Positions 15,718 to 37,808 of a stretch of DNA of 37,808 bases are shown here, one piece after another (the stretch's first letter is position 1; every line of letters starts with the position of its first letter). Source of the DNA: Cyanothece sp. SIO2G6 (lineage in GTDB: Bacteria; Cyanobacteriota; Cyanobacteriia; CAKZMO01); the NCBI GenBank assembly GCA_010672345.1, contig JAAHGY010000008.1, positions 1 through 37,808 of the forward strand, in the 5' to 3' direction. The position numbers were made by a program, and so were the translations under genes. The notes beneath the pieces were generated by a model. That model was not told where the DNA came from and searched no databases. It was given only the letters and a program-made list of their open reading frames with translations.

Positions 15718-15766
15718 GGATGCATTAGCGTGGAGCGCAATGCACCGTTTTAGCGATCGCTTTTTC
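15718..15766 (+). terminator. candidate intrinsic terminator after the DUF4157 gene
   Basis: imperfect hairpin GGaTGCATTaGCG tggag CGCAATGCACC followed by GTTTT..GCTTTTTCC; lies between convergent genes; same repeat type as 26711-26742. Confidence 0.35.
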
Positions 15767-15825
15767 CTGATACCACCCGGCAAAACTCCTCCAAGAACAG
15801 TGTCCTTTTGAAATATATTTGCAGT

Positions 15826-16899
15826 TCACTTGCAGCACGAAATGTCGGTTACAGTCTTACCCAGATCATGGCTCTCCCAAGGATCGCCCATTCCTGCCAG
15901 CACCCGTCGGGGACCAGAAAAAGGCTGCCGTCCGTGGGTTGCTAACATATTGTCCAACAGCAACACGTCCCCCGCTTGCCAAGAAAACAAGATCGCTTCT
16001 GCGGTAAACGCTTGGTGAACCATTTCTAGCACATCAGGGGGAATGTCTGCCCCATTGCCATAGTAGGTGTTGCGGGGCACCCGATCAGCGGCAACACTCG
16101 CAAGCAAATTGGCTCGAACCGCAGGGTCCAATGTATTGATATTGAAGAGATGGGCCTGATTAAACCAAACAGCCTCTCTGGTGTGGGGATGGTGGGCGAT
16201 CGCCTGACACACTTGCCGCGTTTGTAACTGGTCACCGTCATGCCAGGTAAACTCAATCTGAGCTTGCTGACAGTAAGCTTCTACCTCAGATCGGTCCTCT
16301 GTTTGGAACACTTCCTGCCAGGGTAAATCCAGGCCACCGCCATAGTTACGGACGTACAATACCCCCTGTTGTTGAAATCGCGATCGCACGGCTGGATCAA
16401 TCCGCTCCAGAATACGGCGACTATCCGCGATCGGGGTTGCGCCTCCCTCAGCGGCAGGTTGCACACAATAGAAAGCAATTCTCAAGGGCCACTGACACGC
16501 ATAAGCCATCTCGTTGTGGAGAGGAATGGCACGATTGGCCGGATATTCCGTGGAGGTGTAGACGGAACCTTGCACTTGGGTACGAGGTGTGGAGCGGTAG
16601 GTATAGGGCATGGGTGGGTGGGCGATCGCCTGGATAAACTCACCAAAACCCTCGACCCCCGCCACCTGAAACCCACGAAACAGCACGCCGCCATGGTGGT
16701 GGAGCCACTGAGTAATCGTAGTCGGGTGGTGGGATATCCAATCCGTCAAACTTAATTCCGCTTGGGTCGGTTGCACCAGGAGGGGCAGGGCTGAATCGGG
16801 TTGCAGAGGGGTGGTCTGAACCAGAGTTTCGGTATTGAGGCTGACGCGCCGCCGTTGGCGCTTACCGGGAAAAGCAGTGGGTGATGTGGGTGATGGCAT
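15826..16899 (-). CDS. TauD/TfdA-family Fe(II)/2-oxoglutarate dioxygenase (SyrP-like amino-acyl beta-hydroxylase)
   Basis: VLFRGF..PLHNEMAY (HxE)..GGATPIAD..LDNMLATHGRQPF (distal His plus Arg); paralogue of the domain fused to NRPS-B. Confidence 0.85.
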   Translation of the reverse strand: MPSPTSPTAFPGKRQRRRVSLNTETLVQTTPLQPDSALPLLVQPTQAELSLTDWISHHPTTITQWLHHHGGVLFRGFQVAGVEGFGEFIQAIAHPPMPYTYRSTPRTQVQGSVYTSTEYPANRAIPLHNEMAYACQWPLRIAFYCVQPAAEGGATPIADSRRILERIDPAVRSRFQQQGVLYVRNYGGGLDLPWQEVFQTEDRSEVEAYCQQAQIEFTWHDGDQLQTRQVCQAIAHHPHTREAVWFNQAHLFNINTLDPAVRANLLASVAADRVPRNTYYGNGADIPPDVLEMVHQAFTAEAILFSWQAGDVLLLDNMLATHGRQPFSGPRRVLAGMGDPWESHDLGKTVTDISCCK

Positions 16900-16902
16900 A
16901 AG

Positions 16903-19900
16903 TTAGGACTCCTCCTGGGAAGGCTGGGAACGAACAGTTTTGCGTCGGGTCATGCGGAGTTTTTGTAAGTGAGTTCGTGATAGGGTCTGAGCCTGCTGCT
17001 GCTGTCGCTGCCGATCCAGGCTGTTGAGATGAGCTTGCCAGTCCCCTACGGAAGCATCGGGGTGAGCCACAAGCCACTGGAGCAGCGCTTTCAGATAGTG
17101 GAGCCAGCGCTCGGTGGTGTCTGCGGTAAAACAGGTGCGATCGCTCATAATCTGCAACACAAATTCTTCCCTTGGCAGCACCCGCAGGGTCAGGGGATAG
17201 TTATTGTTGCGAGACGTTGCTTCCGACAGCATTGTCAGCTTCGTTTGAGTCGAGGCACCCACCGCGTCCACCCGGTAATTTTCAAACACAATCAGGCTTT
17301 CAAACAGAGGTATGCCAGCAGGTAGCTCACTCCACCGTTGAATCTGATTCAGGGGGCTATATTCATACTGGCGAGCCTCGCTACGCTGGGTTTGCAGGGC
17401 TTGCATCCAGGTCATAATGCCCATATCTGCGATCAGCTTGACCCGCACTGGCAAGGTGTTGATAAAGAGGCCCACCATTTTGTCCACACCCGCGAGGCTG
17501 GGAGGTCGTCCCGCTGTGGTTGCACCAAAGACAATGTCGGTCTGGCCGCTAATCTGACTGAGAAGAATAGCCCAGGTTGCCTGAACCAAGGTGTTGGGGG
17601 TAATCCGATGCTGTTGGGCCAGGGTCTGAATGGCCGTAGCGGTGGCAGAATCTAAGGTGAAACCTTGAATTTCGTGGTTGGGGAGAGCGCCTTGGGGTTT
17701 CTGATAACCCAGAGAAGTGGGGGTCTGGAAGCCCTCCAGCAGGGAAGTCCAAAAGGTCTCTGCCGTGGATAAATCTTGGGCCATTAACCAGGCAATGTAC
17801 TCTCGATAGGGACGGCGCTCCGATAAGGTGGGCTGTTGCCCCTGGGTCAAGTTTTCGTAGAGCGTGAAGATTTCCTGAATCACCATCGGCATCGACCAGC
17901 CATCTAAGAGGATGTGATGACAGCTCCAAATGATATCGTAGGTATCATCGGTGACTTGCACTAGGGTGGGACGCATCAGGGGGGCAATGTGAGGTTGGAA
18001 GCCCGTGCGCTGATCCTGCTCCAGCAGTGCAGCTAAGTTAGTTTTTTGTGCGGCGGGTGTTTGCGATCGCCAATCATGCACCTGCCAAGGGACAACGACC
18101 TGCTGTTGCACCACCTGTAATGGCTCAGGCAAATCTTGCCACACAAATGCTGTACGGAGGATGGGGTGGCGATCGCTAATCAGTTGCCAGGTTTTCTGGA
18201 GCGCGGCCACATCCAGTTCACCCTGAAGACGGCAACAAATTTGGGTAACATACATGCCATCATCGGGCGCGTAGAGTGCATGGAATAAAAATCCTTGCTG
18301 GATAGGGGTGAGGGGATAGCAGTCTTCAATTTGGGGATGACGTGCGACTAGACAATCGAGGGTCGCTTGATCCAGTTGTGCCAAGGGAAAATCGGAGGGA
18401 GTATAGCCACCTGCTGCGGGACTGAGGCAGTGAGCCATGAGCGATCGCAACGTCTCCAAAAAAAACTGAGCCAGAGTCTCAATAGTTGATGGCGAGTACA
18501 CAGACACCTGGTAAGTCCAGCATAACCGCAACTGGCCTGCAACAATATTGCTATCGATATAGAGGCTATAGGTTTGACTTTGCCTCAACTTTGTTGCTTG
18601 GATCACCCGAAGCTGTGGAGCTTCAGTTTCCATCTCCTTATCACCATTGAGATGCTCAGATAAGTGTTCAGAGTGGCTAAAGTAAATGGTCGGGAGTAGT
18701 TCAGACGCTGTTGAACTGTCTGCTTGTCTGGCAGCCTGTCGATGTTGTTCTTTAATCGTTTTAATCGCAGAAGCTGGCTGATCAATATCCGTTAGGTCAA
18801 ACGCAATCGGACAGAGTGTTTCAAACCATCCGATGGTGCGGGATACATCCATATCTTCAACCAGATGGTTACGTCCCTCCCTAGCAAGGTCAATCGCTAG
18901 CGTAGATTCCTGTGTGCAATGGGCATAGGTTTGTACTAAGGCAGTAAGCAATACTTCGCAGGTGTGGGTGCGGTAAGCGAGGGGCACGTGCTGAAGCAGG
19001 GTTTGGGTATTTTCCGTGTCTAGGCTGACGGTTAAGCTGGCGATCGCGGCGGTTTCTCCACCCGCAGAATCAAGCGACGGTTGTATTGATGGCTGGTCCT
19101 GCTCCAGAGGCTGATCCTGATACTCCTGGTGCTGGAGCCGTTGACACCACTGCTGCAATGAGTGGGTTTTCGCCGATAGTCGCAGGGTCTGGCCTTGTAA
19201 CTGTTGTTGTAACAAAGTTTGGATGTCGCCTGTAAGAATCTGCCAGGAAGTAGGGTCAATTACAAGCTGATGAGCAATGAGGAGCAGATGTTGTAAATCC
19301 TCTTGGGTGGTAGGCTCTAGCAGAATAGCTTGAAACAGCGGCCCAGTAGCCAAATCCAGATTGTTCTGGAAGTTGTTGATAACGGTGGCGATTACCCTTT
19401 CCCTATCAACCCCAGACAGCGTAACCTGACTCACCAACCCTGGAGGCAAATGATCCAAGGCTGGATCATTATGTTGCGTCCAGGTGGCATCCTGCTGTTG
19501 GAAACTCAACCGCAACCCATCATGGTGATTCAGCAAATGATGGATGATGACTTGCAGATTCTCCAGAGTCAAGGGCTGTCGTAACTCTAGCTCCAAGGTC
19601 TGATACCACTGGCGATAATCGGTGGAGGGTTGGTCGAAAAACCAGCGTTGGATTGGTGTCAGCGGAATTGGGCCTACCACCGTGCCTTGGTCAGCAGTCG
19701 TGGCCGTTTCCACCACAGTTGCCAAGGTTCTGATAGTTTGGTGCTGAAATAGCTGCTTGGGGGTAAGTTGCAGTCCAGCCTGGTTCGCTTGAGCAATAAT
19801 CTGCAAGCTGAGGATGGAATCTCCTCCCAACTCAAAAAAGTTATCGTCGATGCCAATGGTGGAAACCCCCAGCACCTGGGTCCAGATGGTGGCAAGCTGT

Positions 19901-22900
19901 TGTTCTAGGGGCGATCGCGCCGCAGTAAATGGAGCCGCCAAACCAGAGCGATCGGGATTGGGCACATCAAGCGATTGCAATTTGGCCCGGTCAATTTTGC
20001 CGTTAGCGTTGAGGGGCATTTGCTTTAGCCAAACAAATGTCGCTGGCACCATGTAGTCCGGTAGTTGTGCCTGTAATTCCTGGCGCAAGTCTTGGACCGA
20101 GCAAGGTGGCTCAACGTCAAGCTTAATGTTGGCACTTACCCCCCTTAATCCCCCCTTGGTAAGGGGGGAAACCTTCGGAACTCCCTCCCCTTGGGAAGGG
20201 GAGGGCTGGGGTGGGGTAGACGGCATCACTGGGGCCAGATCTGAGTTAATCCCATCAGAGTTAGTCTCGGAGACGGTTTCAGCCTCAGCCTCAACCTCAA
20301 TCGAGTGCTGTGGTGTCAAATAGGCAACCAGTCGATTTTGTCCCGATTGGTCCGTTTGCACCATCACCACCGCATCTTGTACTTGGACAAGATGACGTAG
20401 TTTGGCTTCAATCTCACCCAGTTCGATCCGAAAACCTCGGATTTTTACTTGGTGATCAATCCGTCCCAGATACTCAAACGTACCATCAGGCAAATAACGA
20501 GCTAAATCACCCGTTTTGTAAAGACGACCCGAACCAAACGGATTGGCGATAAATCGTTCTGCCGTTAGCTTTGGCCGGTTGAGATAGCCCCGTGCTAGCC
20601 CCACACCACCAATGTACAGTTCACCTGGAATACCGATCGGTACAGGCTGTAGGGAACGATCGAGAATCATGCTTTGGAGATCCGGTAGCGCCCTGCCAAT
20701 GGGACTACTGGGCTGGTCTAAATCCAGTTTACTGAGCGGACGATAGGTCACATGCACTGTCGTCTCGGTGATGCCATACATGTTCACTAGTTGAGGCTGT
20801 TGGTCCCCATGTCGCTCAAACCAGGGCCGCAAGCTTTCGACTGCCAGCGCCTCGCCGCCAAAGATGACATAACGCAATTTTAAGGTGTCAGCCGGATAGT
20901 CAGCATCCACTTGAATCAACTGACTAAAGGCCGATGGAGTCTGATTGAGAACGGTAACCTGCTGTTCAACCAAGAGGTCATAAAATTCCTGGGAAGAGCG
21001 GCTGACCCAATAAGGCACCACCACCAGCCGTCCCCCATAGAGCAAGGCACCCCATAGTTCCCATACCGAAAAATCAAATGCATAGGAGTGGAAAAACGTC
21101 CAACAATCCTGATGATTAAAGTTGTACAGAGAGGCCGTCGTGTCAAATAGACGCACAACATTCTGGTGGGGAATCATCACGCCTTTGGGAATGCCTGTTG
21201 AACCGGAGGTGTAGATAATGTAAGCCAGGTTGTCAGCCGTGACTTCCGTATCCAAATTCTCTGACGGTAGCTGAGTAAGGGTCGGCCAGATTTCATCCAA
21301 ACAAACGATTGGAGCATCCAGGTGCGGCAATTCTTCCAGCAGGGCTGCTTGGGTCAGGAGCAGGGAAATATGGGCATCCTCAACCATAAATTGGAGCCGT
21401 GAGGGAGGATAGGTGGGGTCCAAAGGAACGTAGGCTCCGCCTGCTTTCAGAATTCCGAGTAACCCCACGATCATGTCGAGGGAGCGTTCTACACAAATCC
21501 CGACCAGAACCTCTGGGCCAACTCCCAAAGCCTGGAGGTGACGTGCCAGTTGATTTGCCCGTTGATTCAGTTCAGCGTAGGTGAGGTGATGGTGCTCAAA
21601 GGTAACGGCGATCGCCTCCGGATACTGCTCAACTTGGGCTTCAAAGCGCTGGTGCAGACAAACTAGAGCAGATGCTTGACCGTCTGGTTGCGGCTCTTGG
21701 ATCTGTCGCCAATCTCTGAGTTGGGCTGATTCGCCTGGGGTGAGTAAGGGAAGCCTGTCGAGGCAGGTGTCGGGATTGGCGGCAATGCCCGTCAGCAAAA
21801 CCTGGAAATGACCCAGCAGCCGCTCAATGGTGGCACTGTCAAACAGATCGCTGCTGTACTCCAGCGTGCCCTGCAAACAACCTTCAGATTCAACCACGGT
21901 TAACGTGAGGTCAAACTTGGCAGTGTTCCTGGCTAACTCCAGAGGCTGTAGGGTTAGCCCCGGTAAGCTGAGACCAGTATTGGGAGCATTTTGCAACACC
22001 AGCATTACTTGAAACAAGGGTGTATGGCTTAGGTCCCGTGGCAGTTGTAGGGTTTCAACCAGCTTTTCAAAGGGCAAGTCCTGATGGCTATAGGCTCCCA
22101 GGGCCACCTCACGCACCTGATTGAGTAGTTGCCGAAAACTGGAATCTCCGTCTAGCTGGCTCCGCAAGGCTAGGGTATTCATAAACAAACCAAGCAGCCC
22201 TTCGAGCGCCGCATGATTCCGATTGGCGATGGGTGAACCGACGGTAATGTCGGTCTGGCCTGTATAGCGATACAGCAGGGTTTTCAGGGCAGCTAGGAGC
22301 GTCATGAATAGGGTCGCATCAGCCGCTTTGCTCAGACTTTTAAGGGCTTGGGTTAACTCTGTGGATAAGGAAAAATTCTGGTGGCTGCCACGAAAGCGTT
22401 GTACGGCTGATCGGGGGCGATCGCTCGGCAACTGCAACACTGGAGGAATAGTGGCAAATTGTTGCTGCCAATAGTGAATTTGTTTTTGTAAATACTCTCC
22501 CTGGAGTCGCTGCCGTTGCCAGAGGGTAAAGTCTGCATATTGGAGGGGTAGGGACGGTAGCGGGTTGGGCAATCCTTGGGTGAAGGCGTGATAAAGCGTG
22601 GCGATCTCCCGCACCAACACCCCGGTAGACCAGACATCTGAAATGATGTGGTGTAACGTTACTAGCAAGACAAACTCCTGGTCTGCCAACGTTAGCAACG
22701 TCACCCTCAGCAACGGACCCTGGCGGAGATCAAAGGGTTGATGCACCTCTTTTTGGGCCAGCCGCTCCACTTCGTCCCAGGGCTGTTCGTCCAGGGCAGA
22801 CAAATCAATCTGCGTTAATGTCGTCAGTCCTTGGGAATGAATAATCTGTTGAGAATGCCCCCCAAACTCAGCACCCACACTGCCATTGTGGGGATTACTT

Positions 22901-23220
22901 TCGGTGCTGCTGGTATCGGCAATGGTCGTCCGCAGAATTTCATGGCGCTGCACTAAGGTTTGCAACACCTGCTCCAGAGCAGTAGTATCCAGCTTCCCTT
23001 GCAGATGTAGCCCAAAGGGAATGTTGTACAGCGGACTATCGGGTTCAAATTGGTACAAAAACCAAAGACGTTGCTGCGAAAACGATAGCGGTACTACTGC
23101 GTCAGGAGAACGGCGAGGAATGGTAGGCACTGGTGCGGTTCTGCCTTTGAGACGCTGAGCCAGGAGTGCTTGCTTAGCCGCAGAAAGTTTGGATTTGCGC
23201 GTTGATGTTGGGTCTGCCAT
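16903..23220 (-). CDS. NRPS-D: C-A(Thr)-T-E(degenerate)-C
   Basis: 2105 aa; motifs [99 protein letters not shown]. Confidence 0.95.
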   Translation of the reverse strand: MADPTSTRKSKLSAAKQALLAQRLKGRTAPVPTIPRRSPDAVVPLSFSQQRLWFLYQFEPDSPLYNIPFGLHLQGKLDTTALEQVLQTLVQRHEILRTTIADTSSTESNPHNGSVGAEFGGHSQQIIHSQGLTTLTQIDLSALDEQPWDEVERLAQKEVHQPFDLRQGPLLRVTLLTLADQEFVLLVTLHHIISDVWSTGVLVREIATLYHAFTQGLPNPLPSLPLQYADFTLWQRQRLQGEYLQKQIHYWQQQFATIPPVLQLPSDRPRSAVQRFRGSHQNFSLSTELTQALKSLSKAADATLFMTLLAALKTLLYRYTGQTDITVGSPIANRNHAALEGLLGLFMNTLALRSQLDGDSSFRQLLNQVREVALGAYSHQDLPFEKLVETLQLPRDLSHTPLFQVMLVLQNAPNTGLSLPGLTLQPLELARNTAKFDLTLTVVESEGCLQGTLEYSSDLFDSATIERLLGHFQVLLTGIAANPDTCLDRLPLLTPGESAQLRDWRQIQEPQPDGQASALVCLHQRFEAQVEQYPEAIAVTFEHHHLTYAELNQRANQLARHLQALGVGPEVLVGICVERSLDMIVGLLGILKAGGAYVPLDPTYPPSRLQFMVEDAHISLLLTQAALLEELPHLDAPIVCLDEIWPTLTQLPSENLDTEVTADNLAYIIYTSGSTGIPKGVMIPHQNVVRLFDTTASLYNFNHQDCWTFFHSYAFDFSVWELWGALLYGGRLVVVPYWVSRSSQEFYDLLVEQQVTVLNQTPSAFSQLIQVDADYPADTLKLRYVIFGGEALAVESLRPWFERHGDQQPQLVNMYGITETTVHVTYRPLSKLDLDQPSSPIGRALPDLQSMILDRSLQPVPIGIPGELYIGGVGLARGYLNRPKLTAERFIANPFGSGRLYKTGDLARYLPDGTFEYLGRIDHQVKIRGFRIELGEIEAKLRHLVQVQDAVVMVQTDQSGQNRLVAYLTPQHSIEVEAEAETVSETNSDGINSDLAPVMPSTPPQPSPSQGEGVPKVSPLTKGGLRGVSANIKLDVEPPCSVQDLRQELQAQLPDYMVPATFVWLKQMPLNANGKIDRAKLQSLDVPNPDRSGLAAPFTAARSPLEQQLATIWTQVLGVSTIGIDDNFFELGGDSILSLQIIAQANQAGLQLTPKQLFQHQTIRTLATVVETATTADQGTVVGPIPLTPIQRWFFDQPSTDYRQWYQTLELELRQPLTLENLQVIIHHLLNHHDGLRLSFQQQDATWTQHNDPALDHLPPGLVSQVTLSGVDRERVIATVINNFQNNLDLATGPLFQAILLEPTTQEDLQHLLLIAHQLVIDPTSWQILTGDIQTLLQQQLQGQTLRLSAKTHSLQQWCQRLQHQEYQDQPLEQDQPSIQPSLDSAGGETAAIASLTVSLDTENTQTLLQHVPLAYRTHTCEVLLTALVQTYAHCTQESTLAIDLAREGRNHLVEDMDVSRTIGWFETLCPIAFDLTDIDQPASAIKTIKEQHRQAARQADSSTASELLPTIYFSHSEHLSEHLNGDKEMETEAPQLRVIQATKLRQSQTYSLYIDSNIVAGQLRLCWTYQVSVYSPSTIETLAQFFLETLRSLMAHCLSPAAGGYTPSDFPLAQLDQATLDCLVARHPQIEDCYPLTPIQQGFLFHALYAPDDGMYVTQICCRLQGELDVAALQKTWQLISDRHPILRTAFVWQDLPEPLQVVQQQVVVPWQVHDWRSQTPAAQKTNLAALLEQDQRTGFQPHIAPLMRPTLVQVTDDTYDIIWSCHHILLDGWSMPMVIQEIFTLYENLTQGQQPTLSERRPYREYIAWLMAQDLSTAETFWTSLLEGFQTPTSLGYQKPQGALPNHEIQGFTLDSATATAIQTLAQQHRITPNTLVQATWAILLSQISGQTDIVFGATTAGRPPSLAGVDKMVGLFINTLPVRVKLIADMGIMTWMQALQTQRSEARQYEYSPLNQIQRWSELPAGIPLFESLIVFENYRVDAVGASTQTKLTMLSEATSRNNNYPLTLRVLPREEFVLQIMSDRTCFTADTTERWLHYLKALLQWLVAHPDASVGDWQAHLNSLDRQRQQQQAQTLSRTHLQKLRMTRRKTVRSQPSQEES
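16996..18333 (-). other. NRPS-D terminal condensation domain (DCL-like)
   Basis: YPLTPIQQGFLFH, RHPILRTAF, CHHILLDGWS; followed only by a basic tail (RMTRRKTVRSQP) and the stop. Confidence 0.8.
18346..19668 (-). other. NRPS-D epimerization-like domain, core motifs degenerate
   Basis: E1 TPIQRWFF is present, but E2 reads AHQLVIDPTSW (19243-19275), EGHGRE reads EGRNH, and the GxGYG and FNYLGQ motifs are absent. Confidence 0.75.
19696..19908 (-). other. NRPS-D thiolation domain (GGDSI type)
   Basis: [14 protein letters not shown]; Ppant Ser codon at 19816-19818. Confidence 0.85.
19966..21663 (-). other. NRPS-D adenylation domain, predicted Thr
   Basis: hand-extracted 10-residue code DFWNIGMVHK, which equals the Thr code as remembered from the Stachelhaus table. 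Confidence 0.8.
20135..20217. repeat. double-hairpin palindromic repeat element, copy B, inside the NRPS-D coding sequence
   Basis: CCCCCCTTGGTAAGGGGGG and CCCTCCCCTTGGGAAGGGGAGGG hairpins; reverse complement of copy A; translated in frame as TPPQPSPSQGEGVPKVSPLTKGGLRGVS. Confidence 0.8.
21751..23103 (-). other. NRPS-D condensation domain (LCL-like), HHIISDVWS
   Basis: C1 LSFSQQRLWFL; C3 at 22627-22653 with Val in place of the usual Gly. Confidence 0.8.
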
Positions 23221-23279
23221 TGTTCGTTTAATCTGCCTGTCTAATACTGCCTGCTTAAGGAATGAGGATTAAATAAAAA

Positions 23280-23458
23280 GTTTTTGTGGGGGGCGGGCGG
23301 ATTATGTGTTTAGCGAAGCCCAGTAGTATCGCAAGCCTAGCTTTACCCCCCTTAATCCCACCTTGTAAAGGGGGGAAATTTCGGTCCTCCCCCTTTGCAA
23401 GAGGGAGTTAGAGGGGTTGCTAAACACCTACGTAGCGGAGTCACGCCCCCCAAAAAAC
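23280..23458. repeat. composite nested palindromic element between NRPS-C and NRPS-D
   Basis: outer arms GTTTTTGTGGGGGGCG and CGCCCCCCAAAAAAC; inner arms GTGTTTAGC and GCTAAACAC; repeat copy C (23341-23417) sits in the loop. Confidence 0.7.
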
Positions 23459-23460
23459 GT

Positions 23461-26649: not shown

Positions 26650-26710
26650 TTGGCGTGAAACTAAAGTATCGGTAAAAAATAAGTTGGAGATGCGAAAGGA
26701 GCGCTAAAGC

Positions 26711-26742
26711 GGTGCGTTACGCTGGCGCTAACGGCACCCTAC
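26711..26742. repeat. GGTGCGTTACGC..GCGCTAACGGCACC hairpin repeat
   Basis: imperfect inverted repeat in the NRPS-B/NRPS-C spacer; same type as 15718-15746. Confidence 0.5.
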
Positions 26743-26767
26743 GTGATCGCTATTCTGTGCCACACCA

Positions 26768-29700: not shown

Positions 29701-32700
29701 CATGGCGATCGAGCACCGCTTCAATTTCCCCTAGCTCGATCCGAAACCCCCGCAGTTTGACTTGATAATCGGCCCGACCCAAATAATCAATGGTGCCATC
29801 GGGCAAGTACCGGGCTAAGTCACCTGTGCGATAGAGGCGATCGCCCGGTATTTGTCCAAAGGGATTGGGCACAAACCGTTCAGCGGTCAGACTTGGACGT
29901 TTGTAGTATCCCCGCGCCAATCGAACACCTCCAAGGTACAGATCTCCCGGCACACCCACAGGTACAGGATTCAACAATTCATCCAAAATATAGACTTGGG
30001 TATTGGTCAACGGTCGCCCCACGGTAATCGGGGTGCTGTCTGTAATTTCTTGCTGAGTGGCCCACACTGTCACCTCGGTAGGACCGTAAAAATTCCTCAG
30101 CGTGGCGCATCGTTCCCGCAAATCCCTGGCTAAATCCGGGGTCAGGGCTTCACCCCCACAAATGATCTGGAGTTGGGTACTGCCGGACCAGTTGGCATCC
30201 AGTAGCATTCGCCAGGTGGCAGGGGTCGCCTGCATCAGCGTCACCCCACGGGTATTGATCTGTGCCGCTAAACGTAAGCCATCCTGGGCTACCTCCCTGG
30301 ATACGAGCACCAATTGCGCCCCCACCACCAGAGGCAACCATAGCTCCAAGACCGACATGTCGAAGGAAAAAGATGCTGCCGACAGGATGGTGTCTGCCGA
30401 GGTGATGCCTAAATCCTGGCGTTGAGAGTGGATTAAATCCACAACGGCATTGTGGGTAATTTGCACCCCTTTGGGCCGACCTGTGGAACCGGATGTGTAG
30501 ATCATGTAGGCCAAGTTATCCGCCTGGGTTGGAGAAGTGGGAGCAGTCACAACCGCTGGAATGGGCTGATCCAAACAAACTGTCTTGCCTCGGTAATTGG
30601 GGAGCAAATCCTGGAGCCAGGATTGACTAATCAAGACTTCCACATTGGCATCATCCACCATAAAGGCCAGACGCGGCGGCGGATAGTTGGGGTCTAGGGG
30701 AATGTAAGCGCTCCCAGCTTTGAGAATCCCCAGCAGACCCACCATCATGTCCACAGACCGTTCTACGCAGATCCCCACTAAGCTGTCAGGGCCAATCCCC
30801 ATGCTTTGCAGGTAGTGAGCCAGACAATCTGCTTTGGTATTCAGTTCCTGATACGTGAGCTGATCGGCTTCAAAGGCCACCGCCACCGCCTCTGGGGTTT
30901 GTTGAGCTTGACGGTCGATCAGGGTGTGGAGACAGAGATCTGGATGAGGTGCTGCTGTGGCGTTCCACTCTGCAAACTGCCGTTGTTCTGCTGTCGTGAG
31001 CAGGGGCATTGTGGCGATCGCCTGCGAATCATCAGTCACCATTGCCGTGAGCAGCACCTCAAAATGGTGGGCCATGCGACCAATGGTTTCTGGCTCAAAC
31101 AGATCGGTGCTATGTTCCCACTCACAGATCAACCCCTGATCACTTTCTTCTACAGAAAGGAGCAGATCACATTTGGCTGTAACGGATGCGGCGGGCAGGG
31201 GAGTCACGGTCATATTGGGCAGTTCCAGGGGCGATCGCGGCATGTTTTGCAACATAAACATCACCTGGAACAGGGGTGAATGGGCCAAACTGCGCTGGGG
31301 TTGTAGTGCCTCAACCACTTGCTCAAAGGGAACGTCTTTGTGGCTATAAGCCTCCAGGGTCATTTGTTTAACTCGGTGGAGAAAATCCTTGACCGAGGCT
31401 GTTTCATTGATAGGCAACCGTAACACCAAGGTATTCACAAACAAGCCAATCAAGGATTCCAACTCAGGCTGCTGCCGATTGGCAATACTCGTTCCCACAA
31501 CGATGTCCCGCTGCTTGCTGTAGCGATAAAGCAGCAGTTGGAATGCTGCCAGTAACGTCATGAATAGCGTCACCTGATGTTTTCGAGCCAGCACTTTCAC
31601 CTGTTCGCCCAGTGCCTTGGGCAACATGACCACCTGGGTCTGCCCACGAAAGCTCTGCACCGCTGGTCGAGGATGATCCGTGGGCAATTCTAGTAGCGTC
31701 GGCGCACCCGCTAGTTGCTGCCGCCAATAGTCAAGCTGGGTTGCCAGCACCTCTCCCTGCAACCACTGGCGCTGCCACTGGGCATAGTCGGCATATTGAA
31801 TTGGCAGTTCCGATAGGGGTTGATTCTCGCTGTCGGTGCGGTAAAGCGCGATCAGTTCCCGGATAAAGATGCTGATAGACCAGCCATCGCTAATGATGTG
31901 ATGCATGGTCACCACCAGTATGGCAACATCCGCTTCGAGATGAACCAACGCTAACCGCAATAATGGTCCGGTGGTCAGATCAAACGGCTGCTTGACCTCA
32001 TGGTTGAGCCAATCTGAGACAGAGACATTTAGCCTAGAGACATTTAGCCCAGAGACACTCAGGTCAGAGACACTTAGCCCAGAGACATTCAGCCCAGAGA
32101 CACTTAGGTCAAAGGCATGAAGCGATCGCACAGGAATGTCCATTGTCGGATGAATGCGCTGGATGGCAGTACCATTCACCACGGGAAATGTCGTCCGCAA
32201 AGTCTCATGGCGACAAACAATGGCATTGACAGCTTGCTGCAACTTGGCAACGTCAAAGGTACCTTCTACCCGCACCACACCCGGCATGTTGTAAGTCCCT
32301 GATACCCCTTCCAACTGGGCCAGGAACCAGAGTCGTTCTTGAGCATAGGATAGGGGAATTGGCGCATCATCCCGTGGTGTTGGGGTAATCGGAGGCATGT
32401 CCAGCCCTCCAGCAGTTTCTGAATCTAGGGCCGCATCGATACCAGCCACGGTTGGCGTTTCAAATAGCACTTTGAGCGAAATCTCGGTTTCTAGGGCTTG
32501 ACGCAGGGACGTGATCAGCCGCATTGCCAGCAGGGAATGTCCCCCCAAATCAAAGAAATTATCATGGATACCAAGGGTCTCAGCAGGTACAGAGAGCACG
32601 TCAGCAAAGAGACTGGCAATCAGGGTTTGTCGCTCGGTTTGAGGGGCAACAAATGTCTCGGTGGGACTGAAGGCGGGAGCAGGTAGGGCTTTGCGATCCA

Positions 32701-35539
32701 CTTTGCCGTTGGGCATCAGAGGCATTTCGTCCAAGGGCACAATTACCATCGGCACCATATAGTCAGGCAGGTTTTGTCTGAGTTCGACTTTCAGATCTAC
32801 CTCAGCAATCTCACCACTCACCACGATATAGGCAACCAGTCTTTGATCACCTGTTTCATCCTCCCGCACCAGCACTACACCTGCGCTGACTTGTTCATGT
32901 TGCAGCAGAGCCGCTTCAATCTCGCCCATCTCAATGCGGAATCCCCGGATTTTGACCTGGTGGTCAATCCGGCCCAGATATTCGATCGCACCATCAGGTC
33001 GATACCGCGCCCGATCCCCCGTTTTATAGAGATGGCCTGGGCCGAAGGGGTTGGTGATAAATTTCTCAGCCGTTAATTCTGGGCGATTCAAATAGCCTTT
33101 TGCGAGGCCCACACCACCCATATGTAATTCGCCCAATGCCCCAATGGGAACCTGCTGCAAATTCGCATCCAAAATGTAAGCCTGGGCATTAGCGATGGGT
33201 CGCCCGATGGGAATGCTTGGAGCTGATTCATCAGACTGGCAGGTCCAATAGGTGGAATTGATACAGGCTTCAGTGGGACCGTACAGATTATGTAAACAGG
33301 CATCAATCTGGCTATGGAATTCCTGCGATAGGTCAACCGCTAGGGCTTCCCCGCCACAAAACACATGTTTGAGGGATTGGCATTGGCTAAAGTCTGGATG
33401 ACTCACCAAAACCCTCAGTAGCGACGGCACCAATTGGAGGTAAGTAATGTTCTGCTCTCGGATCGTTTGGATTAAGTAATCGCCATCCAGGAATCTGCCG
33501 GGTCGAGCAAAAATGAGTTGTCCCCCTGCCAGCAACGGCGCGTAAAACTCCCACACAGAGGCATCAAAACTAAAGTTAGTACGCTGAAGAAACTTGTCTG
33601 TTGCAGCTAATGGAAACGTTTGTTGTATCCACTGCATCTGGTTGCTGATAGCTCGGTGGGGAACCATCACCCCTTTGGGTCTACCCGTGGAGCCAGAGGT
33701 GAAAATCACATAGGCGGGATGGTCTGCCCTTATCTTTGTGGCTGGATTTTGGAGCGATCGCTCAGCAATTGTCTCCCAATTCCCATCTAAACAAATAACC
33801 TGAGTATCAACCCCTGGCCCGGTGGTAATTTCTGGTAGCCGCTCCAAAAGATGAGTTTGCGTCAGTAACACGGGCACTTGAGTATCCTGGAGCATGAACT
33901 GAATCCGAGCAGCAGGATAATCCGGATCAATCGGCACATAAGCTCCACCCGCTTTGAGCACCGCCAACAATCCCACCACCATTTCTGGAGAGCGCTCCAC
34001 ACAAATCCCCACTAAAATATCTGCTCCCACGCCTAACGCTTGCAGATAATGGGCAAGCTGATTGGCCCGGATATTTAGGGCTTGATAGGTGAGTTGAGTG
34101 TCCCCTGCGACAACAGCGATCGCATCCGGCGTTTGCTTGACCTGCTGTTCAAACTGCTGATGAATCCAAGTCTCGTGGGGATAAGCTACGGTAGTTTGAT
34201 TCCACTCGGTCAGCAGTTGTTGTTCTGCATCGGTAAGCAAAGGTAGGGTGGCGATCGCCCTTGAACTATCCTGCACAATTGCCCGGAGCAGAATCTCAAA
34301 ATGTTGGCCCAGTCGCTCAACGGCATCGGGAGGGAAGCGATCGCCGTCCCCATCAAAATTGAGCGATAACTGCTCACCTGGAATTACCACCAAATTCAGG
34401 GGATAGTTTGTACGCTCACTGGCGATGATCGTTTGAATGGGTAAGGTTTGCTGATATCCACGCAGAGCTTGGGCAATGGGGTAGTTTTCAACCACTACCA
34501 GGGTATTAAACAGGGTATGGGATACCTCGCTCAGTCGCTGAATGTCTACTAGCGGCATGTAGCTGTAACCTTGCAGATCCTGGAGATCGTGCTGGAGTTG
34601 TTTGAGCAAGGTGTCCCCGGAGCAATCTGGAGACAAGGTTAACCGAAGAGGCAGGGTATTGATAAACAAACCCACCATATCCTCAACCCCATCTAGAGGA
34701 ATGTCTCGCCCGGAAACAGTGATACCAAACACCACATCGGCTTCACCACTGTAGCGACTGAGTAAGATGCCCCAAACCCCATAAATGAGGGTGGCTAAAC
34801 TCATGCGCTGCTGTCGTGCCCATTGCTGGATTTCCTCCGTTAACTCAGCCGATAGCAGATGTTCCCACCGATGAAAGTCGGTGGCTGGACCTGTCTCCTG
34901 TTCTTGCAGCGGCAACGGGGTTGGGGTTTGAAATCCAGATAGCTTTTGTCGCCAATAGGTTTCAACCGTTTCCCGTTCCTGCTGTTGCAGCCAAGCGACA
35001 TAGGCTTGATAGGGTTTGCGGCGAGGCGATCGGGCTTGGCCTTGATAGTTGGCGAGTAAATCCTGCATTAACAGGGGCAGGCTCCAACCATCCAGCAACG
35101 CATGGTGATGGGTCCAAATCAACTGGTGCTGATTCGGAGTCAGTGTAATCAGGGTACAGCGCATCAACGGAGCTTTGGTGGTTTCAAAGACCGTTTGTTG
35201 ATCCCGCCGCAGCCACTCCTGTAGTTTTTGTGGTTGCTGGTCTGCCGCGATATGTTGCCAATCATGCTGCTGCCAAGGCAACTCCACTTGTTTGAGCACA
35301 ACCTGTAACGTTTGAGTGCGCTGCCACACAAAGCAGGTACGCAATACATCGTGGGAGTTAACTAATTGTTGCCATGCCTGTCGTAGCGCCTCTGGATCAA
35401 TGGTCCCGTCTAACACAATCTGAAGCTGTTCAACATAAATACCCGATTCAGCCGCATAGGTACTATGAAACAACATGCCCTGCTGCATGGGCGTGGCTGG
35501 ATAGATGGTTTGAATGTTGCGACTCAATGTGGTGTTCAT
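26768..35539 (-). CDS. NRPS-B: C-A-T-C-A-T-C-TauD
   Basis: 2923 aa; HHALLDGWS, AYVIFTSGSTGRPKGV, FFDLGGHSLLA, MHHIISDGWS, AYMIYTSGSTGRPKGV, FFELGGHSLLA, IHHIISDIWS, then LLFRGF..FHNESSH..MAHGRHAY. Confidence 0.95.
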   Translation of the reverse strand: MNTTLSRNIQTIYPATPMQQGMLFHSTYAAESGIYVEQLQIVLDGTIDPEALRQAWQQLVNSHDVLRTCFVWQRTQTLQVVLKQVELPWQQHDWQHIAADQQPQKLQEWLRRDQQTVFETTKAPLMRCTLITLTPNQHQLIWTHHHALLDGWSLPLLMQDLLANYQGQARSPRRKPYQAYVAWLQQQERETVETYWRQKLSGFQTPTPLPLQEQETGPATDFHRWEHLLSAELTEEIQQWARQQRMSLATLIYGVWGILLSRYSGEADVVFGITVSGRDIPLDGVEDMVGLFINTLPLRLTLSPDCSGDTLLKQLQHDLQDLQGYSYMPLVDIQRLSEVSHTLFNTLVVVENYPIAQALRGYQQTLPIQTIIASERTNYPLNLVVIPGEQLSLNFDGDGDRFPPDAVERLGQHFEILLRAIVQDSSRAIATLPLLTDAEQQLLTEWNQTTVAYPHETWIHQQFEQQVKQTPDAIAVVAGDTQLTYQALNIRANQLAHYLQALGVGADILVGICVERSPEMVVGLLAVLKAGGAYVPIDPDYPAARIQFMLQDTQVPVLLTQTHLLERLPEITTGPGVDTQVICLDGNWETIAERSLQNPATKIRADHPAYVIFTSGSTGRPKGVMVPHRAISNQMQWIQQTFPLAATDKFLQRTNFSFDASVWEFYAPLLAGGQLIFARPGRFLDGDYLIQTIREQNITYLQLVPSLLRVLVSHPDFSQCQSLKHVFCGGEALAVDLSQEFHSQIDACLHNLYGPTEACINSTYWTCQSDESAPSIPIGRPIANAQAYILDANLQQVPIGALGELHMGGVGLAKGYLNRPELTAEKFITNPFGPGHLYKTGDRARYRPDGAIEYLGRIDHQVKIRGFRIEMGEIEAALLQHEQVSAGVVLVREDETGDQRLVAYIVVSGEIAEVDLKVELRQNLPDYMVPMVIVPLDEMPLMPNGKVDRKALPAPAFSPTETFVAPQTERQTLIASLFADVLSVPAETLGIHDNFFDLGGHSLLAMRLITSLRQALETEISLKVLFETPTVAGIDAALDSETAGGLDMPPITPTPRDDAPIPLSYAQERLWFLAQLEGVSGTYNMPGVVRVEGTFDVAKLQQAVNAIVCRHETLRTTFPVVNGTAIQRIHPTMDIPVRSLHAFDLSVSGLNVSGLSVSDLSVSGLNVSRLNVSVSDWLNHEVKQPFDLTTGPLLRLALVHLEADVAILVVTMHHIISDGWSISIFIRELIALYRTDSENQPLSELPIQYADYAQWQRQWLQGEVLATQLDYWRQQLAGAPTLLELPTDHPRPAVQSFRGQTQVVMLPKALGEQVKVLARKHQVTLFMTLLAAFQLLLYRYSKQRDIVVGTSIANRQQPELESLIGLFVNTLVLRLPINETASVKDFLHRVKQMTLEAYSHKDVPFEQVVEALQPQRSLAHSPLFQVMFMLQNMPRSPLELPNMTVTPLPAASVTAKCDLLLSVEESDQGLICEWEHSTDLFEPETIGRMAHHFEVLLTAMVTDDSQAIATMPLLTTAEQRQFAEWNATAAPHPDLCLHTLIDRQAQQTPEAVAVAFEADQLTYQELNTKADCLAHYLQSMGIGPDSLVGICVERSVDMMVGLLGILKAGSAYIPLDPNYPPPRLAFMVDDANVEVLISQSWLQDLLPNYRGKTVCLDQPIPAVVTAPTSPTQADNLAYMIYTSGSTGRPKGVQITHNAVVDLIHSQRQDLGITSADTILSAASFSFDMSVLELWLPLVVGAQLVLVSREVAQDGLRLAAQINTRGVTLMQATPATWRMLLDANWSGSTQLQIICGGEALTPDLARDLRERCATLRNFYGPTEVTVWATQQEITDSTPITVGRPLTNTQVYILDELLNPVPVGVPGDLYLGGVRLARGYYKRPSLTAERFVPNPFGQIPGDRLYRTGDLARYLPDGTIDYLGRADYQVKLRGFRIELGEIEAVLDRHEQVRQCTVVVHKDKADQERLVAYVVSDTDTQQLKLQLKQHLRQHLPDYMVPNVVMCLPALPLTPNGKVDRKALPEPNYERTTEFVAPQTEPQKLIAALFAKILTSPVEQVGIYDNFFELGGHSLLATQVIARMRQIFHVNISVRQLFETPTVAELATWVGEQRQTQQDMITRCDRHQPLPLSFAQERLWFLEQLYPDSAVYNQTVAVRLTGNLHLDPLHHSLQTIVDRHEILRTTFILHQGQPIQQIAPTLTTTLPVVDLRSLSPTQQPEEVQRLATAADQEVFDITQGPLFRASVLQLQDQEYILLWTIHHIISDIWSTGVLVHELSTLYTAYTTASLPLLESLPIQYADFAVWQRQWLTDEVLDQQLAYWRQKLGGQLPVLKLPADYPPPETPSFQGDMSTFHLSAALASKLHQLSQSHGTTLFMTLLAGFKALLYVHSGQPDMMVGTDIANRNRTEIEGLIGFFINLLVLRTDLSGNPTFQDLLQRVREVTLESYAHQDLPFSQLVQALQPDARRSGVTPFVQVLFVMQNAPFNSFELLDLTLTPVTLNTHSARFDLALFVSETPTGLTVSWNYSGDRFTQDTISRLAQQFETLLSQVVAQPDIDLETLTSMVTQPQAGSKGAKGAKRRKKFKRVTPQAVQQATTDLVTIQPLPCGVMTVQPNNHDVNLVLWAKGERAALNDKLLKHGALLFRGFSIETAKDFEQAAVAICPDLFGEYGDLPRTGVSDKVYGSTPYPEDKAILFHNESSHLQQWPMKIWFCCLQPAKQGGATPIVDCRKAYQLLSPEMRDRLHQKQLMYVRNYIKGLDVAWQDFFHTDDRAVVEQRCQAAGVEWEWLADDGLQTRQIRPALVRHPLTGEWVVFNQLQLHHLSYLDQPTQQSLLSLFGEDRLPRQVYYGDGSTIEPEVLNGLQAAYTEAEQVFDWQQGDIIMLDNMLMAHGRHAYTGSRMIAVAMGEMMTQAKLSQIYSVTSAAT
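26795..27772 (-). other. NRPS-B C-terminal fused TauD-type Fe(II)/2OG hydroxylase domain
   Basis: basic linker GSKGAKGAKRRKKFKRV, then ALLFRGF, FHNESSH (27443-27460), GGATPIVD, LDNMLMAHGRHAY. Confidence 0.85.
27860..29188 (-). other. NRPS-B C domain 3 (LCL-like), HHIISDIWS
   Basis: LSFAQERLWFL, RHEILRTTF, IHHIISDIWS (28745-28774) with Ile in place of the usual Gly. Confidence 0.8.
29225..29422 (-). other. NRPS-B T domain 2
   Basis: FFELGGHSLLATQV; Ser codon at 29333-29335. Confidence 0.85.
29435..30937 (-). other. NRPS-B A domain 2, Gly-like (weak)
   Basis: hand-extracted code DMLQIGFVWK versus the remembered Gly code DILQLGLIWK (6 identical, the rest conservative). Confidence 0.45.
30980..32386 (-). 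other. NRPS-B C domain 2 (LCL-like) with repeat insertion
   Basis: LSYAQERLWFL, RHETLRTTF, MHHIISDGWS (31877-31906). Confidence 0.8.
32021..32110. repeat. 15-bp x6 in-frame tandem repeat (AGAGACAYTYAGSYC)
   Basis: units at 32021, 32036, 32051, 32066, 32081 and 32096; encode the pentapeptide reiteration within FDLSVSGLNVSGLSVSDLSVSGLNVSRLNVSVSDW. Confidence 0.9.
32420..32626 (-). other. NRPS-B T domain 1
   Basis: FFDLGGHSLLAMRL; Ser codon at 32534-32536. Confidence 0.85.
32645..34162 (-). other. NRPS-B A domain 1, Gln-like
   Basis: hand-extracted code DAWQFGLINK versus the remembered Gln code DAWQFGLIDK (9 of 10). Confidence 0.6.
34220..35518 (-). other. NRPS-B C domain 1 (DCL-like)
   Basis: IYPATPMQQGMLFH, HDVLRTCF, HHHALLDGWS (35087-35110); follows the E domain of the upstream protein. 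Confidence 0.8.
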
Positions 35540-35566
35540 AGCGTTGTCATTTCATTGGGATAGGTT

Positions 35567-35640
35567 GGGAGACAGACTGGGAGACAGACAAGGGGTTGCT
35601 GGCGCAGACAGAGGGATACCGAACAGACAAAGGGGGTCTG
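35567..35640. repeat. short reiterated GAGACAGAC/CAGACA motifs in the NRPS-A/NRPS-B spacer
   Basis: GGGAGACAGAC twice in tandem, then CAGACA at 35605 and 35624. Confidence 0.5.
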
Positions 35641-35655
35641 GTTGAACAAATCCTG

Positions 35656-37808
35656 TTACAGACTCAGTTGTTGCATCACGTCATCAAGGTCAGTTTGGCT
35701 GAGGTCAATCATTGGAAAGTCAGAGGGCGTGTAGCCACCGCTATCTGGTGCTAGGCAATGGTCAATCAGGTTTTTCAGAGCATGGATGTAATTTTGGGCC
35801 AACTGTTCAATTGTTTCGGGGTGATGATGAGCGCGACTGTAGCTCCAGTTAATGTTCAATTCTCCTGCCACAGTCTGGACATTGATGTCGATGAGATGGG
35901 GGCGTTGACCCTCTGGATCTTGAAGATTACCTATCGATTCAGGGGCTAATGACCAATCAGCACCAAATCCTTTTTCAACCTGCCCCAAGTAGTTAAAACT
36001 GATTTGTGGTGGTGGTAGTGCATCTAGCGCAGTGTCTTTCGTGATGTAGCGCAGCAGTCCATAGCCAATGCCACCATCGGGAACTTGGCGCAGATATTCT
36101 TTGACCGCCTTGAGATTATTGCCAGGAGACTGCTGTGGATCGGTTGTTAGAACAATAGGATAGAGGCTGGTGAACCAACCCACAGTTCGGGACAGATCGA
36201 CGGTTTCAAATAACGGATCGCGTCCATGGCCTTCCAGATTGACGAGCACGGTGTTGCTGCCGAGCCAAGGGGCGATCGCCTCTCCCAAAGCCGTCAACAG
36301 TGCATCGTTAATTTGGGTATTGTAGGCATCGGGGACTTGGTGCAGGAGTTGTGCGGTCTCCTCTGCACCCAGGCTAGTGGATAGGGTCGTCATGTCAGCC
36401 ACGGTGGAATGGGTAGGAGCGCTTGCGATATCCACAGGTAGGGTTGTTTCCTGAGATGCTGCACCCTGGGATGCGGCTTGAGGCCAGGGAAGATTAAGCC
36501 AGTAGTCAAGCTGTACCTTCAGGTCATCGGATTGGCTATAGGTTTCCAATTGCAGGGACCAGTCCTGATAGGCCGTTGTCTTGGGAGGAAGCAGAGTAGG
36601 CTGCTCAGTACGACCATAGAGATCCCACAGATCCCCCAGTAATATGCGCCAGGATACGCCATCAATGACTAAGTGGTGAAAGATGAGTAACAGCCGTTGT
36701 TGGGTGCCCAAGTTGAACAGAATCGCGCGACCCACTGGCCCTTGACTGAGGTGGAGACTGGCTTGTTTTTGGGTGGCGATCGCCTCCAACTCCCGTTCCT
36801 GTCTGCTAGACGATAGCCCAGATAAATCAACCTTTTCAACAGGAATCTCAACCCCATCGGTGCTGTGCTCCTGACACCACTGACCGTCACGGTATTCAAA
36901 TCGCAACCGCAGGGCATCATGGTGGTTCACTAAGTCAACTAGATTTTGCTGTAACTTATCCTCATCCAGATCAGAGGGAACCTGGAGCAAGATGGCCTGA
37001 TTAAAGTGATGCGGATTGCTCCAGTGTTGCTCCAAAAACCAGCGTTGAATCGGGGTGAGGGGCACCGGACCTGCGACTTGCCCTTGCTGGGCCAAAATTG
37101 GCACTTCTGTCTCGTGGGTAATGGCATAGGCCAATTCGCCAATGGTTTGATACTGAAACAACTGTTTAGGATTGATCGGCAACCCTGCTTTTCGAGCCTG
37201 GGCAATAATCTGAATGCTCAGAATAGAATCACCCCCCAGCTCGAAAAAGTTATCGTGAATGCCAATGGCGGGAATGTCGAGCACCTGGCTCCAGATATCA
37301 ACGAGTTGTTGTTCCAGTGGGGTTTGGGGTGGGGTAAATGGGGTGTCTAAGCTAGAGCGCTCGCCACCAGGAATATCCAGAGTCTGCAATTTTGCCCGAT
37401 CAACTTTGCCATTGGTATTTAAGGGCACGTGCGCTAGCCAAACAAACGCCGAGGGCACCATGTAGTCTGGCAACCGCGTCTGCAACCATTGGCGTAATTC
37501 CTTGACTGAGCAGGGCGGTTCAACCTCAAGGTCCATATCAGGATTAACATCAACCGTGGTTTCAGCTTGAGCTGCGCCAACTTCAGGGGTGTCGGTCTCA
37601 TGTTGAGGAGTCAAATAGGCAATGAGACGACTTTGACCAGCCGGATCAGACTGAACCATGACCACAACATCTCGCAGTTGGGGATGTTGCCGTAACACCG
37701 CTTCAATTTCTCCCAGTTCGATACGGAAGCCACGAATCTTGACCTGATGGTCAATCCGGCCCAGATACTCAAAACTACCATCGGGTAAGTAGCAAGCCAA
37801 ATCACCCG
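35656..37808 (-). CDS. NRPS-A (5' end outside the window): ..A-T-E
   Basis: the frame is open to the window edge (..[36 protein letters not shown]); [75 protein letters not shown]. Confidence 0.95.
35701..37083 (-). other. NRPS-A epimerization domain (all core motifs intact)
   Basis: [10 protein letters not shown] at 36649-36678; EGHGRD, GIGYG and FNYLGQ present. Confidence 0.85.
37105..37317 (-). other. NRPS-A thiolation domain (GGDSI type)
   Basis: Ser codon at 37225-37227. Confidence 0.85.
37366..37808 (-). other. NRPS-A adenylation domain, C-terminal subdomain only
   Basis: A8 to A10 motifs; the specificity pocket lies outside the window; close paralogue of the NRPS-D A domain. Confidence 0.8.

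Follow-up and report, generated by a model that had tools for sequence, protein, structure and literature searches.

The last 22 kb of contig JAAHGY010000008.1 from Cyanothece sp. SIO2G6 carry an incomplete nonribosomal peptide synthetase (NRPS) line, which raises the question of what this line assembles and whether it could still do so. The window analysed here is the entire contig, since the gA protein is on record on a single contig of 37,808 nucleotides, and its end cuts the line inside the first gene. Five co-directional open reading frames (ORFs) on the minus strand (15826-37808) make up the line: gA to gD each encode an NRPS protein, and there are two hydroxylases of the TauD type, one as a fusion within gB and the other as gE. 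We put the probability at roughly four in five that the region is, as judged from its sequence, the middle section of a cyanochelin-type NRPS line of a HIP1-rich cyanobacterium, making a β-hydroxyaspartate (β-OH-Asp) iron chelator. To our knowledge the list of characterised siderophores from cyanobacteria is short, and among those described only the cyanochelins form a class built on β-OH-Asp. An earlier, sequence-only reading of this DNA had proposed an NRPS line with two TauD hydroxylases on the minus strand, running beyond the window edge, and had left the choice between a cyanochelin relative and a new scaffold. The ORFs and Pfam matches bear out the first of these points, and the line does run off the edge, gA being open-ended, but the window is the whole contig and there is nothing past 37808 to follow. 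Of the two options offered, the relative is the correct one.

Domains were called from Pfam and NCBIfam matches, a core-motif scan and reading of the translations; all lie on the minus strand with their genes. Condensation, AMP-binding and PP-binding matches in gA to gD have E-values from 1e-16 to 0, and TauD is matched by the C-terminus of gB (3e-44) and by the whole of gE (3.3e-45). In terms of condensation (C), adenylation (A), thiolation (T) and epimerisation (E) domains, gA (35656 to >37808, open to the contig end with its start codon not inside the window) has the C-terminal part of an A domain followed by T and E; gB (26768-35539, 2923 aa) is C-A-T-C-A-T-C-TauD; gC (23461-26649, 1062 aa) is C-like-A-T; and gD (16903-23220, 2105 aa) is C-A-T-E*-C, in which the T domain is of GGDSI type and E* denotes a degenerate E-like domain. 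The last gene, gE (15826-16899, 357 aa), encodes the stand-alone TauD-family hydroxylase and starts 3 bp past the gD stop codon. The roughly 7,100 codons from gA to gE contain no frameshift and no stop.

The affiliation is supported by comparison with the cyanochelin B cluster (ccs) on plasmid 2 of Leptolyngbya sp. NIES-3755 (AP017310.1), for which product structure and gene roles have been determined experimentally (Falcao et al. 2025, PMC12628792). AP017310.1 is also the best match of gC in the plasmid collection. The ccs proteins were reconstructed from this accession, CcsJ across the plasmid origin, and they align with the window over their full length and collinearly in the order ccsFGH-ccsI-ccsJ-ccsK: gB is 45.6% identical to CcsFGH over the full length, gC 50.7% to CcsI, gD 47-48% to CcsJ, and gE, the CcsK orthologue, 58.5% to CcsK as against 44% to the fused TauD of CcsFGH. 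The two hydroxylases fall into separate classes, the fused one showing 61% identity with the TauD of CcsFGH and the free one 59% with CcsK, as against 40-46% between classes. Near-identity to an already characterised cluster, named in advance as grounds for rejecting the proposal, was not found; protein identity to the cyanochelin B genes is 45-61%. The shared order is [C-A-T-C-A(Gly)-T-C-TauD], [interface domain-A(Asp)-T], [C-A-T-E-C], [TauD]. A dioxygenase, encoded as a gene or as a domain, directly upstream of an NRPS module specific for Asp is given as the genetic signature of a cyanochelin-type biosynthetic gene cluster (10.64898/2026.07.30.741596), and gB's terminal TauD domain directly precedes gC with its Asp code.

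The ten-residue specificity codes of the four complete A domains, DAWQFGLINK, DMLQIGFVWK, DLTKVGHVGK and DFWNIGMVHK, were all reproduced exactly as first read, by GrsA alignment and manual register checks. gB begins with a DCL-type C domain (34190-35512, motif TPMQQGMLFH), followed by an A domain with DAWQFGLINK (32660-34153) and its T domain (32438-32620). This code is identical to the L-Gln signature published for synthetases of the BpsA/IndC type (PMC3992020), which makes the Gln call firmer than had been claimed. The second module has an LCL C domain recognised from Pfam and motifs (30977-32359), an A domain with DMLQIGFVWK (29465-30952) and a T domain (29225-29422). Position 278 of this A domain is Q, its register fixed manually by the motif Q-A-T-P-A, and the code has D, L, Q, G, W and K in common with DILQLGLIWK, the Gly code of both cyanochelin B Gly modules; Gly is the best call here, and the weakest of the four. 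β-Ala, which cyanochelin C has at this place, was rejected because D235 and K517 are kept and L239, Q278, G301 and W331 are Gly-like. The protein ends with a further LCL C domain (27860-29206, HHIISDI), a basic linker and the fused TauD hydroxylase (26834-27694), which carries the HNE...HGR motifs for iron and 2-oxoglutarate. In a comparison with the PRK05691 model the first C domain of gB and the last of gD align to its post-E C domain, and the three others are LCL-like. The two C domains flanking the Asp module have HHIISDI (27860-29206) and HHIISDV (21718-23097) and not HHxxxDG; the gD form is kept in four relatives, and CcsJ has HHIVSDA.

gC is the Asp module. Its A domain (23800-25287, followed by T at 23533-23721) has DLTKVGHVGK, identical at nine of ten positions to DLTKIGHVGK of CcsI and likewise to the CcsL code, and the residue in the product there is β-OH-Asp; the Asp call made earlier holds. 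The N-terminal domain of gC (25360-26622) matches Condensation weakly, and is by its motif a non-catalytic, interface-type domain of C fold, because LPALCAD stands in for HHxxxDG. LPALCAD is also present in CcsI and in the orthologue from a metagenome-assembled genome (MAG) described below, and variants are LPSLCAD in CcsL and LSALWAD in the orthologue of locus L167. Motif and position agree with those of an interface (I) domain: HHxxxDG is absent, the domain lies directly before the Asp A domain, and the partner hydroxylase follows the preceding C domain. Its best sequence match in the PDB is the X domain of teicoplanin Tcp12 (4tx2), likewise a C fold without catalytic residues that brings a tailoring oxygenase to a carrier-bound substrate, although this match is weak (79 bits), not better than to ordinary C domains, and the partners of the X domain are P450s at a line's end rather than a 2-oxoglutarate dioxygenase at an Asp module. 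The proteobacterial cupriachelin and potashchelin lines for β-OH-Asp siderophores also resemble the window (scheme of Reitz et al. 2019), each cluster having one fused and one free TauD-family Asp hydroxylase, as here, and a non-catalytic C-like domain before the Asp A domain, with the fused enzyme expected to give 3S and the free one 3R. CcsL, the cyanochelin B module served by the free hydroxylase, also starts with an I-like domain.

Domain order, motifs, codes and orthology are read from the sequence itself, and the mechanism that we propose from them is modelled on cyanochelin B and on the Reitz/Butler fused-hydroxylase scheme. The residue loaded by gA would be epimerised and handed to gB through the pairing of a COM-like tail with the DCL-type C domain, and gB would add L-Gln and then Gly. 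Asp would be loaded on the T domain of gC, where the catalytically dead N-terminal domain may dock the C-TauD end of gB, such that the fused dioxygenase would hydroxylate C-3 of the tethered Asp, with a predicted 3S (L-threo) outcome by the cyanochelin B rule. The last C domain of gB would then join OH-Asp to the chain, and gD would add a Thr that should remain L.

This last prediction depends on the condition of gD. An LCL C domain (21718-23097, HHIISDV) precedes an A domain (19981-21645) with DFWNIGMVHK, the canonical Thr code, so that the Thr call also holds, and the T domain (19714-19902). There follows E* (18346-19683), with HQLVIDP for HHxxxDG and AREGRN for EGHGRE, from which FNYLGQ is also lost. 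We took a competent E domain to have the second His of HHxxxDG, the Glu of EGHGRE and a TIGR01720 score above the 74-bit cut-off, and E* scores 64 bits; it is E-derived, but none of the sequence criteria makes it an epimerase. The Thr added by gD is predicted to stay L because the catalytic His and Glu of E* are lost. E* is degenerate to an equal degree in all four close relatives examined, including L167, which retains the second half of the line, and it is on this distribution an old, retained non-catalytic domain and not the product of recent decay. The terminal C domain of gD (17041-18333) is of DCL type (HHILLDG, TPIQQGFLFH) and is followed by a basic tail. gE carries the same HNE...HGR motifs as the fused TauD of gB, and both hydroxylases present the TauD fold and the H-x-D/E...H triad; a basic linker motif is likewise found in both hydroxylase units, KRRKKFKRV in gB and RQRRRV in gE. 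The terminal C domain of gD and gE would constitute a second, split C and hydroxylase unit, which would serve a second I-A(Asp)-T(-E) protein and then a reductive release module, both either elsewhere in the genome or lost. Thr, Gln and Asn were considered as substrates of gE and rejected in favour of Asp, since gE is the CcsK orthologue. The earlier reading of the domains was correct as far as it went, but omitted the degenerate E-like domain and the terminal C domain of gD and the loss of catalytic residues from the N-terminal domain of gC.

An intact E domain ahead of the first DCL-type C domain, as previously claimed, is present in gA. Pfam matches to AMP-binding_C, PP-binding and Condensation place the C-terminal part of its A domain at 37387-37806, a GGDSI-type T domain at 37129-37311 and the E domain at 35719-37071, ahead of a COM-like acidic tail; the E domain retains HHLVIDG and EGHGRD and scores 158 bits with TIGR01720 against the cut-off of 74. 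The specificity pocket lies off the contig. The orthologue in the MAG, 82% identical, carries the Thr code DFWNIGMVHK, and the A9-A10/T region of gA is 57% identical to that of the Thr module of gD, with an unusual insert common to both. Thr is a reasonable assignment for the gA residue, though an inferred one, and would become D-allo-Thr once epimerised. The insert, between A9 and A10 in both Thr-type A domains, is long and of low complexity, about 30 aa in gA (within 37387-37806) and about 65 aa in gD (within 19981-20538).

Taken in order these calls predict the segment ...D-(allo)Thr?-L-Gln-Gly-L-threo-β-OH-Asp-L-Thr-[β-OH-Asp-...]. The residues of the D-Xaa-Gln-Gly-(OH)Asp-Thr core proposed earlier stand, but as a fragment only, as the C domain that closes gD is an orphan and the window offers gE no Asp-T partner. 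Cyanochelin B consists of an acyl-thiazoline, Phe, Gly, L-threo-OH-Asp, D-Ser, D-threo-OH-Asp and ethanolamine (PMC12628792), and the window segment Gln, Gly, (OH)Asp, Thr is in register with it, differing in having Gln where Phe precedes Gly and Thr where Ser lies between the Asp positions. The E domain of this spacer module is intact in CcsJ, in agreement with the D-Ser observed, and dead in gD. Upstream, CcsFGH aligns in register with gB, and in the window a module with a live E domain feeds the DCL-type C domain. Cyanochelin B further has a FAAL/polyketide synthase (PKS)/thiazoline start and a transporter cassette, not visible on this contig, and after ccsK come ccsL and a gene for C-A(Gly)-T-reductase, both absent from the window; CcsL is I-A(Asp)-T-E, gC aligning with it from residue 8 with the E domain following. 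Cyanochelins A (Rivularia sp. PCC 7116) and C (Myxacorys chilensis), set beside the window by description, use the same C + TauD + I-A(Asp)-T logic and end in OH-Asp-Gly-DHABA with a Gly spacer. Gly ahead of the first OH-Asp is a feature common to cyanochelins A and B and is kept here, in contrast to cyanochelin C, which has β-Ala at this position and whose mature product is without lipid. The cyanochelin C cluster includes an aminotransferase gene, which is also found in the second half of the relatives of the window. From its predicted sequence, unlike that of cyanochelin A, B or C, the product is probably an undescribed variant.

The fusion of C and TauD domains is matched by 6019 database proteins at E <= 1e-100, and among the best 120 listed all but one of those assigned to a named organism come from cyanobacteria, one of them from Rubidibacter lacunae, a known producer. 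On these matches the family is large, widespread and already recognised, and the present cluster is an incomplete new member of it. Galica and co-workers reportedly surveyed 26 cyanochelin-like clusters in 2021.

What the line lacks can be judged from its relatives, which are the MAG contig JAYKGU010000172.1 (L001, 81% similar), a TARA scaffold (L166) and the further loci L167, L168/L169 and L170. Relatives with a gE 73-92% identical share the gC-gD-gE order. The window must lack a second Asp module and a release module at the least, as is seen from the orphan C domain that closes gD and from the want of an Asp module for gE; of the components for two β-OH-Asp units, the second hydroxylase and its C domain are present and the contig has one Asp module. 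A synteny break point lies in the interval 15700-15849: in blastn comparisons of the window with L001, L166 and L167, and in the gene tables of L166-L170, similarity to all four relatives stops at about 15842-15849, which is 16-23 nt short of the gE stop codon. The last residues of gE differ from those of the relatives, and the DNA downstream of the break is unrelated. What follows gE differs from one relative to the next. In the MAG the start of a candidate IS66-like transposase (read by eye, 20504-20823) lies about 100 bp past the TauD gene, and the contig ends inside it. In L166, whose gE is the most similar (92%), a type II thioesterase gene (8450-9319, GHSMG), absent from the window, overlaps the end of the TauD gene, and there are no NRPS genes in the 1.4 kb between TauD and the contig end. 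L170 has a Transposase_mut gene and no NRPS genes within 10 kb after TauD. L167 has, downstream and inverted, genes for I-A(Asp)-T-E, C, an aminotransferase and C-A-T-reductase, with the Asp code and an intact E motif readable, and in L168/L169 a protein with C/A/T/C domains, which resembles CcsL in size and domain order, follows 3 kb downstream on the same strand, together with a free C domain and an aminotransferase, these loci stopping inside the aminotransferase gene. The region after the free hydroxylase gene is, on this comparison, a rearrangement hot spot, because each relative has something different downstream of gE, and judging from gene order the second half works in trans in at least some relatives. 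The ORF taken by eye as IS66-like in the MAG (20504-20823) reads MKELPLLDGLSHAEKDALIGELWKELQ... and has a CPHCG motif.

No remnant of the second half was found in the rest of the contig: tblastn of 1-15900 with queries that included CcsL, the reductase module, PKS/FAAL and type II thioesterase gave no NRPS, PKS, thioesterase or aminotransferase remnant (all E > 0.08). The reductive (TD) release module that lies near gE in L167 is absent from the window, again with no remnant. There is no siderophore transport cassette among the genes at 1-15700; the cassette of cyanochelin B lies upstream of its first biosynthetic gene, and the equivalent place would be off this contig. Initiation and export or uptake genes, previously placed outside the window, are indeed found nowhere on the contig. 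No terminator-like or promoter-like site was seen between gE and the convergent toxin gene beyond the break, an exact 47-mer from the window end has no match in JGI metagenome contigs, and look-ups of gB and gE by exact sequence gave no record. The HIP1 octamer (GCGATCGC), of which 0.26 copies would be expected, is present 57 times, with about 1.5 per kb in the housekeeping part as well as in the NRPS part, and because its density is equal on both sides of 15849 the contig appears to be one cyanobacterial genome, a chimeric assembly at this point being judged unlikely. All of the closest relatives are cyanobacterial, and the nearest of them are known as MAGs and metagenome scaffolds, a TARA sample being the source of one.

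The relatives also differ in their modules. In the MAG the 3.2 kb of upstream sequence that was read shows A(Thr)-T-E, and the C, T, E* and TauD parts flanking the A domains are about 80-89% identical to those of the window, which indicates A-domain swaps; the A-domain codes of gD orthologues among the closest relatives include Asn-like and Ser codes. Module swapping among the closest relatives is, from these codes, the usual combinatorial evolution of such clusters. The gB orthologue of the MAG (80-9913) has a methyltransferase-like insert in its first A domain and a different code, and the gD orthologue (13187-19333) an Asn-like code (about DATKVGEVGK).

The most serious alternative is that the locus is a truncated, non-functional remnant, its second Asp and release modules lost through a rearrangement at about 15849, such that the product cannot be finished. 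The loss of synteny with all relatives 16-23 nt from the gE stop codon, together with the altered last residues of gE, points in this direction, as do the unrelated genes that follow (an eCIS_core/Tox-HDC toxin, a Uma2 nuclease), the want of any trace of the missing genes, the mobile elements at the same spot in relatives (the candidate IS66-like start in the MAG and Transposase_mut in L170) and the dead E-like domain. However, several observations speak against it. Codon-based ratios of nonsynonymous to synonymous substitution (dN/dS) against the TARA and MAG orthologues are 0.05-0.14 for the catalytic and carrier domains, 0.07-0.09 for gE, 0.08-0.11 for the orphan terminal C domain of gD, 0.17 for the I-like domain of gC and 0.22-0.25 for E*. 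All domains are under purifying selection, E* being relaxed yet clearly not neutral, and the constraint extends to the terminal C domain and gE, the former otherwise useless in a remnant. The intact run of some 7,100 codons argues likewise against a remnant, and the dead E domain is common to four lineages, among them L167 with its second half. Nor need separation from the second half be fatal, since this half is on the opposite strand in L167, is separated by other genes in L168/L169, and so acts in trans anyway. We therefore regard a remnant as improbable, and because of the dN/dS values and the uninterrupted codons favour a first half that still works and has its partner genes on another contig, which we consider a likely state of affairs.

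A second alternative accepts the peptide but gives it a role unrelated to iron, as a β-OH-Asp lipopeptide antibiotic or toxin, for example. The window has no transporter or iron-regulation gene that would speak for uptake of iron, and hydroxylase profiles also catch non-metallophore β-OH-Asp peptides, according to the authors of the antiSMASH metallophore rules (PMC12971057). Nevertheless, the genes agree one by one, in orthology and in order, with those of a cluster proven to make a photoreactive siderophore, and the agreement extends to the two hydroxylase classes and to the Gly-(OH)Asp-X-(OH)Asp logic, which makes a non-iron role very unlikely.

Terminal C domains release products in other systems, and it could be argued that the line is a self-contained shorter pathway with one β-OH-Asp, in which gD's terminal C domain itself sets the chain free, by cyclisation or by condensation with a free amine, and gE acts on one of the residues in the window, as the window has no release domain and no NRPS genes lie close downstream in L170 (10 kb after TauD) or L166 (1.4 kb to the contig end); but that C domain has ordinary DCL motifs and is orthologous to the terminal C domain of CcsJ, as gE is to CcsK, both of which serve CcsL in cyanochelin B, and the gE neighbours in L167 include an Asp-coded I-A-T-E protein, leaving such a pathway hardly credible.

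Several points weigh against the cyanochelin-type assignment itself. Missing from the contig are a second Asp module, a release domain, an initiation module, a TonB-dependent receptor and any other iron-related gene, and it is homology that suggests the siderophore function. Stachelhaus codes are predictions of substrate and not proof, and DMLQIGFVWK agrees with the canonical Gly code at only six of ten positions. The gA substrate is taken from an 82%-identical orthologue, in a family with visible A-domain swaps. If E* is dead the DCL-type terminal C domain of gD would have to take an L-donor, which is unorthodox, and the dN/dS ratios (0.05-0.25) average both lineages, so expression of this particular copy cannot follow from them.

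The cyanochelin-type assignment can, tentatively, be taken further. The window, the MAG, the TARA scaffold and ENA contigs might represent a distinct marine sub-clade, in which the dead E domain, conserved and maintained by selection, would serve as a structural spacer or for docking, placed between the carrier domain and a C domain of DCL type now taking an L-donor, and the line would routinely occur in two unlinked or inverted halves joined only by docking of the C/hydroxylase unit to the I domain, to give a congener with Gly-(OH)Asp-L-Thr-(OH)Asp. We consider this proposal doubtful as a whole. The photolysis of cyanochelins releases Fe(II) to whole communities, and the contig adds to this family a predicted new congener in which Gln and Thr replace Phe and Ser. 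It also provides an instance of diversification, apparently by module swapping and by rearrangement downstream of the free hydroxylase gene. The conserved dead epimerase ahead of a DCL-type C domain is a small but testable oddity for NRPS enzymology, while the practical value of the cluster is limited by its incompleteness.

The genes at 1-15700, leuS among them, are unrelated to secondary metabolism. Nearest to the line, and convergent with it, is the gene of a 651-aa protein with eCIS_core (formerly DUF4157) and Tox-HDC domains (13745-15700, plus strand), polymorphic-toxin-like, which ends 126 bp from gE and for which no immunity gene was identified. Further genes of this part encode a toxin with a PIN domain, preceded by a small ORF that may be its antitoxin, two Uma2-family endonucleases and a DUF29 protein (10343-11107, 705-1271 and 12564-13355 on the minus strand, 4136-4627 on the plus strand). 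A RimK-like ATP-grasp ligase is immediately followed by an AstE/AspA-family gene, succinylglutamate desuccinylase/aspartoacylase-like (1837-3923, plus strand). Close to the left end of the contig a glutamine riboswitch (365-422, minus strand; Rfam RF01739, 59.7 bits against a gathering threshold of 35) precedes a 39-aa ORF (208-327, minus strand), an arrangement that fits a cyanobacterial origin.

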